Origin: Candidatus Aenigmatarchaeota archaeon | GTDB lineage: Archaea; Aenigmatarchaeota; Aenigmatarchaeia; PWEA01; JAGHBM01 | DNA: 44,281 bases | Direction: 5' to 3' | Assembly: GCA_021162085.1 (NCBI GenBank) | Contig: JAGGZI010000014.1 | Location: 1 to 44,281 of the forward strand | Part shown: piece by piece, positions 7,890 through 42,529 of the stretch | Position numbering within the stretch: the first letter of the stretch is position 1 | Layout: each line of letters begins with the position of its first letter | Program-made: the position numbers and the translations under genes | The notes under the pieces: generated by a model | Database searches by the model: none | Told to the model about the DNA's origin: nothing | The model's input: only the letters and a program-made list of their open reading frames with translations

Positions 7890-8228
7890 CTAAATAATGC
7901 TAATTGAAAAAATTGTTATAAAGATTATTAAGAATATTAGTATTTCTTTTCTGAACTCCTTTTTGCCTCTGATTAAATCATATGTATAAACTATAAGACA
8001 AGATATTATCTGCCAATAAACCACAAGAACCAGGAGATAAAGTATCACACCAAAAAATGCTCCTATTTGCATATAACTCACCAAATGAATTAGAAAAAAC
8101 ACCTCCATTGTTCTACCGTAAATCATACCCGTAACAGAAAAAAGCAATATTGCTGTAAAAACAATCCCCTTTCTCCAATCAGGTCTTATAAAATCTTTAA
8201 CAAATTTCCAGTCCATATTTAATTTCAT
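7890..8228 (-). CDS. Small hypothetical membrane protein
   Basis: Hydrophobic ORF (FIRPDWRK then TM helices). The track start at 8291 lies inside tRNA-Met, so a start at 8228 or 8216 is more likely. Confidence 0.65.
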   Translation of the reverse strand: MKLNMDWKFVKDFIRPDWRKGIVFTAILLFSVTGMIYGRTMEVFFLIHLVSYMQIGAFFGVILYLLVLVVYWQIISCLIVYTYDLIRGKKEFRKEILIFLIIFITIFSISII

Positions 8229-8267
8229 TCTTCTTCGAATTATTAAACTTAATTTCTTAAATATTCT

Positions 8268-8470
8268 TGGTGCCTGGGGTGGGTCAACCATTTCCCCAGA
8301 AAACGCTTTGCGTCTTCAAGTTTTGGGAAGTACAGAGACCTTTTTTGAAAAAGGGATCTGTTTTCGAACCCACGACCTCTAGATTTCTCACCATATCATA
8401 ATCCTCTCAGACTCATCACTCATAACTTTTGTTATGAGTCTAGCGCTCTAACCAACTGAGCTACCCAGGC
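8268..8470 (-). tRNA. tRNA-Met(CAT), elongator type, 2 introns (37/38: 8385-8432; T-loop ~59/60: 8285-8362)
   Basis: Spliced GCCTGGGTAGCTCAGTTGGTTAGAGCGCTAGACTCATA/ATCTAGAGGTCGTGGGTTCGAA/ACCCACCCCAGGCACCA; BHB helix CUCA/UGAG at the anticodon intron. Confidence 0.88.
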
Positions 8471-8533
8471 ATCTGAGATTCTAATTAGAGTTTCTTTTCA
8501 TACAACACTTTTCTTTGTGAAAGAAAAGGTTGT

Positions 8534-8796
8534 TGGTGGACCCGGGGAGATAAGGGAAACTTGAAAAGTTTCCAAGTTCTTTCCCTTGAGGCTTTCTTTT
8601 GAAGAAAGGCTCATTTGAACTCCCGACCTCTACGTAGCCCTTTTCCGCATACGCACAGAAGCGTTAACGGAAAATTTATCAGCGTAGCGCTCTAATTACC
8701 CACACTTTTCTTTTTCTCACAAACTTGACTGAAGTTTCTTTTCCCACAGTCTTTTCTTTGTGAAAGAAAAGCTGTTCCAAGCTGAGCTACGGGTCC
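8534..8796 (-). tRNA. tRNA-Ile(GAT), 3 introns (D-loop: 8696-8776; 37/38: 8636-8676; 59/60: 8551-8613)
   Basis: Spliced GGACCCGTAGCTCAGCTTGG/TTAGAGCGCTACGCTGATA/ACGTAGAGGTCGGGAGTTCAAA/TCTCCCCGGGTCCACCA forms a complete cloverleaf. Confidence 0.88.
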
Positions 8797-8949
8797 ATTG
8801 TAAATTAATTTTTATGCAATCTATAAAAAAGTTTCCCTTCCATTCAAGGCAATGTATACTCAAGACCTGAGAAAGAAATAAGGATAAAAATCGATGCCTT
8901 ACTACACACCGACATTTAAAAACAAAAAATTTTGGTGGACTTGTCGGGA

Positions 8950-9100
8950 CTCTCTCGAACCTGCAGGGGGCAAGCCCCCTTCAGTTTTACGGTATTCCTG
9001 ATATCTTCCCTTCCTTTTAAAATTGGCAAACTTTCAGTTTGCCCAAAATTGTTTCTTTGGGAAATACAAAAACCTTTCTTTCAAAAGAAAGGGATTTGTC
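8950..9100 (-). repeat. T-loop intron of tRNA-Ala, near-identical to the tRNA-Arg T-loop intron (42244-42397)
   Basis: About 100 consecutive identical nt from ttcagttttacggtattcc to aaaacctttcttt. Confidence 0.95.
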
Positions 9101-9133
9101 TTTGAACCCGAGACCTCCGCCGCTCTCAGACCA

Positions 9134-9287
9134 TTCACCAAGCCAGTTTCCGTTGACGTCTTGAGATTTTATCTCAAGTATTTGGAACATTGAGTTCCAA
9201 AACTTTACGCCGAGTAAAGGGTCATCCAAGTTTTCTGACTTCACCAAGCCAGTTTCCGTTGACGCTTTACGCCGAGTAAAGGGTCAT
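9134..9287. repeat. 48-bp direct repeat inside the tRNA-Ala anticodon intron (9240-9287 intact; 9134-9225 interrupted by a 44-bp insert at 9159-9202)
   Basis: ttcaccaagccagtttccgttgacg|ctttacgccgagtaaagggtcat is present twice. Confidence 0.95.
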
Positions 9288-9393
9288 GCGAAGGCGGCGC
9301 TCTTCCAACTGAGCTACAAGCCCATAATTAATTTTTCCTATCAATAATAGTTTTCTTTCGTACAACTCTTTCTTTTTCTAAAAGAAAGGTTGT

Positions 9394-9662
9394 TGGTGGG
9401 CCCGCCGAGATCTCCACGATGACGTACACTTCGTGCACGTCAAGCTATCTTTGAATTCCCGACACCCTTTCTTTTTTTCACAGTCTTTATCAAAGTTTTC
9501 TTTGACCGTAGACGACTTTCTTTTGTGAAAAGAAAGGAGTCTCTCGGGTCGCCAGCACCCCAAGCTGAAATGCTAGACCACTCCAGGGGACACCTACGGT
9601 TTCCCCTTAGGGTAACCTCTTCCCTTTCTAGAGCGCTAAGGGCTTAGCTACACCACGGGCCC
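9394..9662 (-). tRNA. tRNA-Pro(GGG), 3 non-canonical introns (D-loop: ~9581-9646; 53/54: 9456-9542; 59/60: 9411-9449)
   Basis: Spliced GGGCCCGTGGTGTAGC/TGGTCTAGCATTTCAGCTTGGGGTGCTGGCGACCCGAG/TTCAAA/TCTCGGCGGGCCCACCA; BHB helices CCCG/CGGG and UUCA/UGGA. Confidence 0.85.
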
Positions 9663-9747
9663 ATGATTAAATTTATGATATTTTTCTAAATATATTGATA
9701 TAGAAACATTTTTAAATCAATTCGCACTATTTTTATTAGGTGAAAAA

Positions 9748-25086: not shown

Positions 25087-25408
25087 TGGTGCGGAGGGCC
25101 GGATTCTCACACGACTCACAGGAACCATAGATTCCAGTTCTCCCTCACTCTTGACCACTCCTTCAAAATTGTTAGGAAAACTCTTTTCGAGTTTTCCAAG
25201 TTCTTTCCTTTGATGCTTTCATATTTTGGTTGGGTTGCCCGGACTGGTCCAGACTATGGAACCCAACCTATATTACGAAAGGCTCATTCGAACCGACGAA
25301 CCCACTAAGGGACCAGATCTTGAGTATCACCTATCATCTGAGTATCAAAACTCAAGACTGAAGCTGGCGCCTTTGGTCCACTTAGATTGACCACTTGGCT
25401 ACCTCCGC
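25087..25408 (-). tRNA. tRNA-Leu(CAA), 3 non-canonical introns (D-loop: 25373-25386; 30/31: 25326-25363; 59/60: 25104-25286)
   Basis: Spliced GCGGAGGTAGCCAAGTGGTCAA/AGGCGCCAG/ACTCAAGATCTGGTCCCTTAGTGGGTTCGTCGGTTCGAA/TCCGGCCCTCCGCACCA; long variable arm; BHB helices GGUC/GACC, CGCC/GGUG, UUCG/UGAG. Confidence 0.88.
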
Positions 25409-25990: not shown

Positions 25991-26228
25991 TGGTGCGCCA
26001 GCCGGGACTTCCACCCTACGGAGGGACACCAAGGTTTCCCTCCTTATGGGTATATTCTCCCTTCCTTTTAAAATTGGCAAAAGCGAAGCTTTTGCAAGTT
26101 CTTTCCTATTGCCCTTTCTTCTGAAGAAAGGCAATTTTGAACCCGGGTCTCGAGCTGTCTCCACTCCAACTCATTTGACTGAGTAAATTGCTTGGGAAGC
26201 TCGGGTCCTACCACTAGACTACTGGCGC
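25991..26228 (-). tRNA. tRNA-Gly(CCC), 2 introns (37/38: 26157-26192; 59/60: 26008-26135)
   Basis: Spliced GCGCCAGTAGTCTAGTGGTAGGACCCGAGCTTCCCA/AGCTCGAGACCCGGGTTCAAA/TCCCGGCTGGCGCACCA; BHB helices UUCC/GGAG and UUCA/UGGA. Confidence 0.92.
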
Positions 26229-28891: not shown

Positions 28892-29130
28892 TGGAGCCCC
28901 GGGCCGGACTCTCACCCTACGGAGAGACAAAACGATGGACTTAGGCAGAGCCTAAGTCAGTTTGTCGTTTCCCTCCTTATGGGAATATCCTCCCTTCCTT
29001 TAAAAAATATAGGAAAACTCTTCGAGTTTTCCAAGTTCTTTCCCTTGAGGCTTTCTTCTGAAGAAAGGCTCATTTGAACCGGCGATCTTCCGCTTACGAG
29101 GCGGACGCATTACCACTATGCTACCGAGGC
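28892..29130 (-). tRNA. tRNA-Thr(CGT), 1 long T-loop intron (59/60: 28909-29072)
   Basis: Spliced GCCTCGGTAGCATAGTGGTAATGCGTCCGCCTCGTAAGCGGAAGATCGCCGGTTCAAA/TCCGGCCCGGGGCTCCA; BHB helix UUCA/UGAG. Confidence 0.93.
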
Positions 29131-42226: not shown

Positions 42227-42529
42227 TGGTGCCCCTGCCGGGACTTTCACGAACCCGCAAGGAACCTACGGTTCCTTTCAGTTTTACGGTATTCCTGATA
42301 TCTTCCCTTCCTTTTAAAATTGGCAAACTTTCAGTTTGCCCAAAATTGTTTCTTTGGGAAATACAAAAACCTTTCTTTTGAAAGAAAGGGATTTGTCTTT
42401 GAACCCGGGTCCCAGCCTTTCTACTTTGCGCTGAGTAAAGGGCCACTTCTACAAGCCAGTTTGATGAATCTTTATGCCGAGTAAAGATTCTCCGCAGGGC
42501 TGTATCCTATCCAGCTAGACTACAGGGGC
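42227..42529 (-). tRNA. tRNA-Arg(GCG), 2 composite introns (37/38: 42419-42491; 59/60: 42244-42397)
   Basis: Spliced GCCCCTGTAGTCTAGCTGGATAGGATACAGCCCTGCGG/AGGCTGGGACCCGGGTTCAAA/TCCCGGCAGGGGCACCA; BHB helices CUGC/GUAG and UUCA/UGAA. Confidence 0.9.
42244..42397 (-). repeat. T-loop intron of tRNA-Arg, near-identical to the tRNA-Ala T-loop intron (8950-9100)
   Basis: Direct alignment; differences are confined to hairpin tips and the splice-junction end. Confidence 0.95.

Follow-up and report, generated by a model that had tools for sequence, protein, structure and literature searches.

How can the genes for two unrelated tRNAs come to carry nearly the same intron? The question is posed by a stretch of 44,281 nucleotides (nt), referred to here as the window, from the genome of an archaeon of the phylum Aenigmatarchaeota, in which the T loops of a tRNA-Ala(CGC) gene and of a tRNA-Arg(GCG) gene, lying 33 kb apart, are interrupted between tRNA positions 59 and 60 by inserts that agree almost completely over their first 121 positions. 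The comparisons described below indicate that both inserts are probably genuine introns of the bulge-helix-bulge (BHB) class in its relaxed form, and that an Ala intron already in place was recently overwritten in part by a cassette of the Arg type, through a kind of exchange that appears to be routine in this lineage. The genome that holds the window (G000) is a metagenome-assembled genome (MAG) of Aenigmatarchaeota, a DPANN lineage; it comprises 0.79 Mb in 58 contigs, with 37% G+C and a completeness of 87.6%, and was compared with a genome of the same genus (G001; 85% complete, 674 kb compared, 21 credible tRNAs).

Two tRNA genes with a common T-loop intron

The two loci consist of the following parts, in which introns are located by the tRNA positions that they separate.

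8933-9323, minus strand: tRNA-Ala(CGC), with encoded CCA and two introns (exons 9323-9287, 9122-9101 and 8949-8933, from a spliced-cloverleaf parse)
8950-9100, minus strand: T-loop intron of Ala(CGC), 59/60, 151 nt
9123-9286, minus strand: anticodon-loop intron of Ala(CGC), 37/38, 164 nt, within which a unit of about 50 nt is duplicated in tandem
8980-9110, minus strand: tract common to both loci, Ala side, formed by 10 exon nt and intron nt 1-121, with 2 mismatches, the greatest length that the proposed conversion tract can have
9066-9099, minus strand: module 1, an extended palindromic hairpin at the 5' end of the Ala T-loop intron, with the core CCTTTCTT-loop-AAGAAAGG at 9073-9092
8980-9002, minus strand: 23-nt core (ATCAGGAATACCGTAAAACTGAA) found in all long T-loop introns, the likely 3' crossover site
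8950-8979, minus strand: Ala-type 3' end of the T-loop intron, made up of a GGGGGC/GCCCCC hairpin and the junction end
42227-42529, minus strand: tRNA-Arg(GCG), with encoded CCA (exons 42529-42492, 42418-42398 and 42243-42227)
42419-42491, minus strand: anticodon intron of Arg(GCG), 37/38, 73 nt
42244-42397, minus strand: T-loop intron of Arg(GCG), 59/60, 154 nt, a probable donor-type cassette
42277-42407, minus strand: tract common to both loci, Arg side

Counted from the 5' end of the T-loop intron, 119 of 121 positions are equal in the two genes, with mismatches at positions 18 and 19 only, and the longest exact run covers 102 nt (8980-9081 and 42277-42378). The likeness also takes in the 10 exon bases ahead of the intron (tRNA positions 50-59), while beyond intron position 121 the copies differ in the terminal hairpin and in the junction end. 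A repeat search ranks the pair first by length among the direct repeats of the window (139 nt, 96%). The two mismatches fall within a 20-nt hairpin whose Ala copy is the exact reverse complement of the Arg copy, with an inverted loop; the resulting tcaa/ttga difference thus probably reflects a single loop inversion rather than two substitutions. The original prediction, made from the letters of the window, had proposed near-identical introns at 8950-9100 and 42244-42397, identical over about 100 nt, hosted by different tRNA families and differing in a terminal hairpin, one loop and the junction end. These limits match the parsed T-loop introns to the base and the remaining points are borne out by the measurements above, with the qualification that the loop difference represents one hairpin in two orientations. 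The hosts are indeed distinct, since ARAGORN calls Ala(cgc) and Arg(gcg) on the sequences spliced in silico and tRNA-Ala carries a G3:U70 pair, and a genome-wide BLASTN of the intron, proposed together with the prediction, returned the Arg match with an E-value of 3.6e-56 within the 0.79-Mb genome.

Neither gene is visible to standard tools. ARAGORN finds no tRNA gene in the unspliced window and makes two calls in the whole of unspliced G000, one of them with a spurious intron of 1244 nt, and the Rfam tRNA model gives one match in the window and two above its cut-off in G000 as a whole. Since the standard finders are nearly blind in this genome, a spliced-cloverleaf parser was written for the analysis. 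From 2030 candidates with an acceptor stem and CCA, it retained 345 with a T-arm score of at least 14, then 89 with a score of at least 16 that could be fully parsed, and finally 33 genes (score of at least 39, span of at most 450 nt, one gene per 3' end), the discarded rows being low-scoring A/T-rich chance matches and longer alternatives with a common 3' end. The parser misses genes that lack an encoded CCA, have acceptor mismatches or carry acceptor-stem introns. Parsing of tRNA-Pro(GGG) by hand, outside the 33, brings the total found in G000 to at least 34, and at least two further tRNA-like genes lie beyond the parsed set, at C41:2089-2327 and C46:23046-23313.

After in-silico removal of the introns, the expected anticodon was called by ARAGORN in all 33 parsed genes. 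An intron at 59/60, of 51-196 nt, is present in 31 of them, the two with an uninterrupted T arm being Trp(CCA) and Val(CAC); anticodon-arm introns, mostly at 37/38, occur in 23 genes and D-arm introns in 13. The mean is 2.0 introns per gene, and intron sequence amounts to 5292 nt versus 2552 nt of exon. The 3' CCA is encoded in 34/34 of the genes found, as the parser required, despite the presence of a CCA-adding enzyme at C53:23234-23587. With the Rfam tRNA model, seven other genomes of the G000 family yield 1-13 matches and those of other families of the class 1-38, so that heavy disruption of tRNA genes is widespread but uneven.

Origin of the likeness

The state of the Ala locus in G001 is informative regarding the history of the two introns. 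The cluster formed by tRNA-Pro(GGG) and tRNA-Ala(CGC) is syntenic in G001, whose Ala(CGC) gene has a 147-nt intron at 59/60. For segment identities, the introns were split at the 23-nt core into a 5' part of 98 nt and a 3' part of 30 nt; in the underlying alignment, the Glu(TTC) row, which was on the wrong strand, was disregarded. In the 5' part, the Ala intron of G000 is 98% identical to that of G000 Arg and 67% identical to that of G001 Ala, whereas in the 3' part it is 97% identical to G001 Ala and 58% identical to G000 Arg. Both G000 Arg and G001 Gly(TCC) possess the Arg-type cassette in complete form, with 96% identity over 152 nt; it is therefore the Ala intron of G000 that is the hybrid, and its Ala-type 3' end would have been retained from the ancestral Ala intron. 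A recent non-reciprocal exchange between loci 33 kb apart, by ectopic gene conversion or recombination, would have replaced the first 100-130 nt or so of the older Ala(CGC) intron with a cassette such as that of Arg(GCG), with crossovers in stretches that both genes possess, namely the T-arm exon CGGGTTCAAA and the 23-nt intron core. The original prediction had left the choice between transposition and gene conversion; the hybrid nature of the Ala intron speaks for conversion, and transposition finds no support for this intron, given the occupied 59/60 site of Ala(CGC) in G001.

Similar events appear to have taken place throughout the tRNA set, and the pair noted in the original prediction is one instance of a system that spans the genome and the clade. 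All 67 introns of G000 were compared with each other, families being defined by an identity cut-off over at least 80% of length. At 80% identity, 28 of the introns fall into families that span at least two amino-acid types, and 20 do so at 90%, while shuffled sequences give 0-2; the comparison network is reticulate. Among the pairs that link different amino-acid types within this one genome are the following.

Ala(CGC) and Val(CAC), anticodon introns: 97% over the full length (Val intron of 167 nt, G000 C16:5183-5509)
Gln(TTG) and Glu(TTC), D-loop introns: 98% over the full length
Asp(GTC) and Ser(CGA), T-loop introns: 97% over the full length
Arg(GCG) and Ser(GCT), T-loop introns: 98% over the 3' 65 nt only

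The Ser(GCT) intron, when split at the core, is 100% identical to that of Arg in its 3' part and about 50% identical in its 5' part. Introns at different tRNA positions are related at the level of modules only, as in the case of the Arg(CCT) T-loop and Glu(TTC) D-loop introns (88% over 49 nt) or of the Ala(GGC) T-loop and Ala(CGC) anticodon introns (83% over 46 nt). The contents of the sites also differ between the two genomes: for the 17 G001 T-loop introns with a match, the best G000 match is orthologous in Lys(CTT) and Ser(CGA) only, the Leu(CAA) ortholog being a partial match ranked fourth. Length is equally labile, the Thr(CGT) T-loop intron having 164 nt in G000 and 12 nt in G001 (C20:14674-14758), where this minimal form consists of the splice motif and a 5-nt loop. 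The T-loop intron of Arg(TCG) has 52 nt in G000 and 12 nt in G001 (C17:17260-17384). On the basis of these alignments, the 59/60 introns are best described as mosaics of a few conserved modules reshuffled among tRNA genes.

A different explanation of the likeness involves no recent exchange, but vertical descent of both introns from one ancient cassette under purifying selection on a functional intron RNA. It finds its support in the fact that cassettes, spacers and retained introns are 91-96% identical between G000 and G001, as compared to 72-80% for long alignments of the two genomes, and that module 1 is 90-96% identical in other families. Cassettes residing in different tRNAs of the two genomes reach 93-96%, and the modules are thus either strongly constrained, or moving between lineages, or both. 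Constraint, however, does not account for the pattern at the Ala locus, where the G001 intron differs by 33% in exactly the part in which G000 Ala and Arg are 98% identical, the rest being Ala-like; it also leaves the occurrence of cassettes in non-orthologous genes unexplained, and the copy would seem to be very young, with nothing but a single loop inversion to distinguish the two over 131 nt. Descent without exchange is thus considered improbable.

Slightly less probable still is a fresh transposition, in which a mobile intron copy would have been inserted into an intron-free T loop of Ala(CGC) or Arg(GCG). The 'intron transposition' model for Thermoproteales, as presented in the accessible text of a review (PMC4090602), does describe close copies of one intron in unrelated tRNAs, and the Ala(CGC) gene itself offers a true case of presence and absence: its anticodon intron, which shares 97% identity with that of Val(CAC), has no counterpart in G001 Ala(CGC), where the anticodon arm runs without interruption. 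(The anticodon intron of G001 Val(CAC) is a related single unit of 57 nt.) No such empty site is seen for the Ala T-loop intron, since G001 Ala(CGC) carries an intron at the same position with a 3' end that is 97% identical. The site is filled in 31/33 genes of G000 and 19/21 of G001, with the same two, Trp(CCA) and Val(CAC), free in both genomes, which indicates that 59/60 was occupied before the two lineages split, and the G000 Ala intron is a hybrid rather than a whole copy.

Splice junctions, splicing enzymes and assembly

The geometry of the 59/60 introns corresponds to that of a canonical 37/38 intron, with the T stem followed by a helix of 4 base pairs (bp) and by a 3-nt bulge on each strand, the cut being placed after the second bulge base. 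The central helix pairs T-loop positions 54-57 with intron nt -6 to -3. All four pairs are possible in 14 of the 31 T-loop introns and three or more in 23, compared to a perfect helix in 0-1 of them at the neighbouring registers 0, 1, 3 and 5, which are four of the five control registers. All four central pairs are formed at the Arg(GCG) junction (TTCA/TGAA helix, bulges AA/G and AG/T, with the stroke at the cut), and minimum free energy (MFE) folds of both Ala and Arg display the T stem and the 3-nt bulge on the 3' side. The 5' bulge runs into a hairpin of its own, without pairing to the 3' end of the intron, which makes the motif one of the relaxed kind. Excision of the inserts restores a standard cloverleaf in both genes according to the parser and ARAGORN; the two 3-nt bulges and the 4-bp helix are present, in a relaxed version for Ala; and genes for a splicing endonuclease and an RNA ligase are encoded in G000. 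The folds and the junction pairing also agree with the earlier proposal that structure has been conserved, a BHB-like junction and a stable terminal hairpin being kept in both copies.

G000 encodes a single EndA (PF01974, 97.4 bits) of alpha4 length, with roughly 180 amino acids, which aligns over its full length to EndAs of solved structure and without gaps to the alpha subunit of N. equitans. Between its catalytic Tyr and His, it carries 6 residues that M. jannaschii EndA lacks; this insertion is common to the N. equitans alpha subunit and, judging from its position, probably corresponds to the L3 loop of Kaneta et al. RtcB (584 bits), RNase P RNA and the CCA-adding enzyme are encoded as well. 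A single alpha4-like EndA with this Nanoarchaeum-type insertion would cleave at both bulges, and RtcB would then join the exons. It is of note that a tRNA-Asn/tRNA-Phe pair stands about 500 nt upstream of the EndA gene (G000 C51:17508-19146). The arrangement recurs in three of the four relatives that are closest by EndA (L059, L060, L062), with T-loop introns in both tRNAs; in a genome region whose EndA is 70% identical (L066), the two unassigned tRNAs upstream of EndA have intact T arms. The match to RNase P RNA (G000 C4:15554-15939) measures 386 nt, versus 288 positions in the model, and may hold an insertion.

Other classes of intron were also considered. A search of positions 8200-9700 against Rfam at E values of up to 10 gave only chance-level matches to the intron (E of at least 2) and pointed to no known RNA family, and one tRNA is the sole gathering-level Rfam match in the window. 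Group I, group II and C/D-box small-RNA-bearing introns were rejected in the light of this lack of a match to any RNA model. No C/D boxes were seen by eye in the T-loop intron; box-like words occur in anticodon introns.

About as improbable as a fresh transposition is the possibility that the inserts are not spliced in cis, the 5' 59 nt and 3' 17 nt of each tRNA being separate transcripts joined in trans, or the insert having another role. In the trans case, which would resemble that of split tRNA genes, module 1 would serve to end the transcript or to mark where it is processed. Another DPANN archaeon is known to have split tRNAs, module 1 also lies directly after tRNA 3' ends and stop codons, and the long introns contain an A/T-rich, TATA-like stretch. 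Against this stands the spacer between Pro(GGG) and Ala(CGC), in which module 1 separates close genes on the same strand with no oligo-T, the oligo-T run following Ala instead; such an arrangement suits a processing or spacer element rather than a terminator. In addition, the 12-nt T-loop introns of G001 are too short for a terminator and a promoter, and a cis arrangement with a BHB-like fold is simpler.

An assembly artefact, in which a repeat was collapsed or its flanks mis-joined so that one copy is a chimera, is hardly credible, since, although the MAG is in 58 contigs and no contig of any run reaches across all of the 131-nt repeat into unique sequence at both ends, the two copies were kept distinct by the assembler with two differences, the junctions are bridged without differences by contigs of separate runs (X3 across the 3' junction of the Ala intron, 8889-9063; X1 and X2 across its 5' junction, 9052-9163), the two acceptor strands that flank the repeat are perfectly complementary at each locus, a pairing that a flank swap would break, and the same mosaic architecture recurs in the independent genome G001 and in one metagenome record. 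The collapse or chimera named at the outset as what would refute the prediction thus finds no support. The metagenome record (L207), the only one to contain the 23-nt core in the scan, reads as the G001 Gly(TCC) gene when compared by eye. Contigs X2-X4, from three runs, join position 9127 to 9286 through 21 other letters, with sides of less than 30 nt and at a depth above that of the G000 population; they probably represent the Ala-like tRNA of a relative with a 21-nt anticodon intron.

The unspanned repeat nevertheless counts against the account of genuine introns and partial overwrite, as do a number of other points. Regarding the junctions, 8 of the 31 T-loop introns form fewer than 3 of the pairs where the register would place them, and for five of these a register 2 nt further in fits; the Ala(CGC) junction has 3 of 4 central pairs, with an A:A mismatch in the helix; and the inner helix of the strict hBHBh' motif is absent, the 5' bulge leading into the module-1 hairpin in the MFE folds. 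The locus was found in no RNA run, and splicing at 59/60 and in cis is inferred only. Regarding the exchange, the Arg-to-Ala direction rests on two genomes, and an ortholog of Arg(GCG) was found neither by BLAST nor by the parser in G001, which is 85% complete. A class II tRNA on C41 is 100% identical to Ala over the first 67 intron nt, and the real donor could be a third copy such as this one. Finally, 'recent' cannot be dated, given that the high identity of cassettes between diverged genomes implies that selection or transfer between genomes also shapes the similarity.

Module 1, neighbouring genes and the spread of introns

The other tRNA genes of the window show the same kind of interruption. 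Apart from Pro(GGG), those listed here were identified by the parser and by ARAGORN after splicing.

9394-9662, minus strand: tRNA-Pro(GGG), with introns in the D loop and at 53/54 and 59/60, directly upstream of Ala and in one cluster with it
8534-8796, minus strand: tRNA-Ile(GAT), with D-loop, anticodon and T-loop introns
8268-8470, minus strand: tRNA-Met(CAT), with anticodon and T-loop introns
25087-25408, minus strand: tRNA-Leu(CAA), with three introns, that of the T loop measuring 183 nt
25991-26228, minus strand: tRNA-Gly(CCC), with anticodon and T-loop introns
28892-29130, minus strand: tRNA-Thr(CGT), with a 164-nt T-loop intron (12 nt in G001)

The introns of Pro(GGG) measure 66 nt (D loop), 87 nt (53/54) and 39 nt (59/60) and leave a 6-nt micro-exon, TTCAAA, between the last two; the spliced sequence is accepted by ARAGORN, and the 53/54 intron has just 24 nt in G001. 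The spacers that follow the CCA of Pro and of Ile (9343-9393 and 8483-8533, minus strand) both hold module 1, whereas Ala is followed by oligo-T. Co-transcription of Pro with Ala, and of Ile with Met, is suggested by this arrangement, with module 1 marking sequence that is to be cut away.

Module 1 is a pyrimidine/purine hairpin that occurs within the first 50 nt of 25 of the 31 T-loop introns, in most cases no more than a few nt from the 5' splice site and with a purine motif after it, as well as in 8 of the 13 D-arm introns and 3 of the 23 anticodon introns. Its roughly 32 places in G000 lie in or beside parsed tRNA genes, including the spacers right after CCA, save for about 10 that are unclassified, four of which fall in the tRNA-like genes of C41 and C46. 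The exact 16-nt core is present in 27 of 151 sampled genomes of the phylum (0-1 for a reversed-pattern control) and is multi-copy in a patchy set of them, with 16 copies in G000, 15 in G022, 13 in G136 and 12 in G130. In other families, where module 1 shows 85-96% identity, it is found after tRNA 3' ends, in the anticodon introns of Trp and Cys, inside a 5S rRNA gene (L027 1457-1663, G031; an Rfam 5S match of 207 nt and 45.3 bits versus a 120-nt model), inside a signal recognition particle (SRP) RNA gene (L196 473-830, G022; a 108-nt insertion) and next to start or stop codons of protein genes. The 5S and SRP RNA insertions are of about 90-110 nt, and each begins with module 1. In G022 (L188, L190, L191, L192, L194, L196), the reverse complement of module 1 ends 1-3 nt before an ATG in four of six cases and module 1 starts directly after a TAA stop in two of six; these context counts are partial, the search pattern having matched just 6 of the 19 fetched G022 places.

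A further locus of G022 (L037, G022:C3, about 94.45-94.80 kb, minus strand) holds an intact tRNA-Val(CAC) gene (Rfam, 54.2 bits), followed by module 1, by a second hairpin that resembles that of the Arg intron and by a 21-nt direct repeat of the tRNA's own 3' end, from the T loop to the discriminator. This could be an integration footprint at the T loop or a proto-intron. In G000, a T-arm-like GGGTTCG motif is present at the 3' end of long introns. Introns reportedly protect tRNA genes from integration, an idea ascribed to Randau and Soll. It is suggested here, tentatively and as something possible rather than probable, that T-loop introns serve as 'safe harbours' for a family of small mobile palindromic modules, which would have settled in them or perhaps even given rise to them, and which would spread both within Aenigmatarchaeota genomes and from one to another. 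In this scenario, of which the G022 tRNA-Val locus would be an intermediate, insertion at the T loop would yield an intron that becomes obligatory once the upstream copy of the 3' end is lost, and insertion with duplication of the 3' end would explain the GGGTTCG motif at the ends of long introns. If this were so, the near-universal 59/60 intron could be what elements directed at the T loop and 3' end of tRNA genes have left behind, or a means of defence against them, and the lineage would show directly how archaeal tRNA introns are born and move.

The enzymes that might mobilise such modules were sought in G000 (87.6% complete). There was no match to the Y1 transposase family (PF01797), and TnpB (PF07282) gave sub-threshold matches only, of at most 16.5 bits; the cognate Y1 transposase or TnpB that would mark module 1 as an IS200/IS605-derived or repetitive extragenic palindromic (REP)-like element was thus not found in this genome. 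None of the viral contigs searched as possible carriers holds either module. Bacterial repeats of the REP type, or resembling miniature inverted-repeat transposable elements (MITEs), are short palindromes present in multiple copies. In its general features module 1 is similar, being a short, multi-copy, conserved palindrome that lies in intergenic DNA by start and stop codons and has a patchy distribution across families. Unlike those repeats, it has no Y1 (RAYT/TnpA) or TnpB counterpart found in G000, and it also occurs inside stable RNA genes, where its removal from the RNA is required.

Large-scale intron transposition is said to have been described in Thermoproteales tRNAs by Fujishima et al. 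in 2010. Near-identical BHB introns in different tRNAs, and tRNAs with multiple introns, are known in Crenarchaeota and above all in Thermoproteales, according to the accessible text of the review cited above (PMC4090602), which regards the mechanism of spread of archaeal tRNA introns as unknown; for Thermoproteales, it is thought to act at the DNA level. G000 resembles these families in its near-identical BHB-type introns across isoacceptors and in its multiple introns per gene. It differs from them in that the host belongs to DPANN Aenigmatarchaeota rather than Crenarchaeota, in that a single position, 59/60, is occupied in about 94% of the genes instead of many scattered positions, and in that the introns are long mosaics (51-196 nt) for which the event is a partial overwrite with crossovers in shared sequence. 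Position 59/60 is itself among the known non-canonical archaeal BHB intron sites (PMC4090602, in the same text), and the introns of G000 share with those known cases the site and a relaxed BHB/HBh'-type junction removable by EndA; occasional elsewhere, this site is near-universal in G000, and it is kept between two genomes while the intron content changes.

Sharing of introns across amino-acid types amounts to 42% at 80% identity and 30% at 90% in G000, compared to 28.3% and 12.5% in Thermoproteales and to 1.5% and 0.2% in Asgard archaea, figures taken from the available part of a 2026 preprint whose methods are not identical to ours; copying between tRNA genes, all but undetectable in Asgard, is pervasive in G000. 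The Asgard tRNA genes described there are similar to those of G000 in having about 2 introns per gene, located at BHB-compatible sites and missed by standard annotation. The same part of the preprint reports no route of intron spread, and the G000 lineage shows one that Asgard genomes do not. In 2018, Kaneta et al. (PMC5829648, accessible text) described in DPANN archaea an alpha4-type EndA with the L3 (Nanoarchaea/ARMAN-2) loop, broad specificity and raised tRNA disruption; G000 is comparable, with its single EndA bearing an insertion of the N. equitans type and a tRNA set beyond the reach of standard tools. That sample, in the text concerned, consisted of Pacearchaeota, Woesearchaeota, Nanohaloarchaea and Mancarchaeum and not of Aenigmatarchaeota, and intron sequence families are not described in it. 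A limited literature search found no paper on the tRNA introns of Aenigmatarchaeota.

The system described here therefore belongs to a known kind as far as BHB introns at 59/60, multi-intron tRNAs and intron families shared across tRNAs are concerned. What is new is the near-universal use of a single position, the long modular cassettes, a partial conversion with mapped limits and the reshuffling of cassettes between congeners, together with a module common to tRNA trailers, other stable RNAs and intergenic DNA. A practical consequence is that tRNA counts used to assess MAG quality, and inferences drawn from codon usage, are badly wrong for this group, ARAGORN or Rfam detecting 2 genes where there are at least 34. 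This lineage offers several kinds of event that bear on the arrival and spread of tRNA introns in archaea: an intron partly overwritten between mapped crossovers, an anticodon intron that one congener has and the other lacks, and one site at which the intron has 12 nt in one genome and 164 nt in the other, in addition to the contrast between cassettes that are 93-96% identical and genomes that are otherwise about 74% identical. Spread by recombination, mobility of modules and selection on intron RNA can thus all be directly tested in this lineage.

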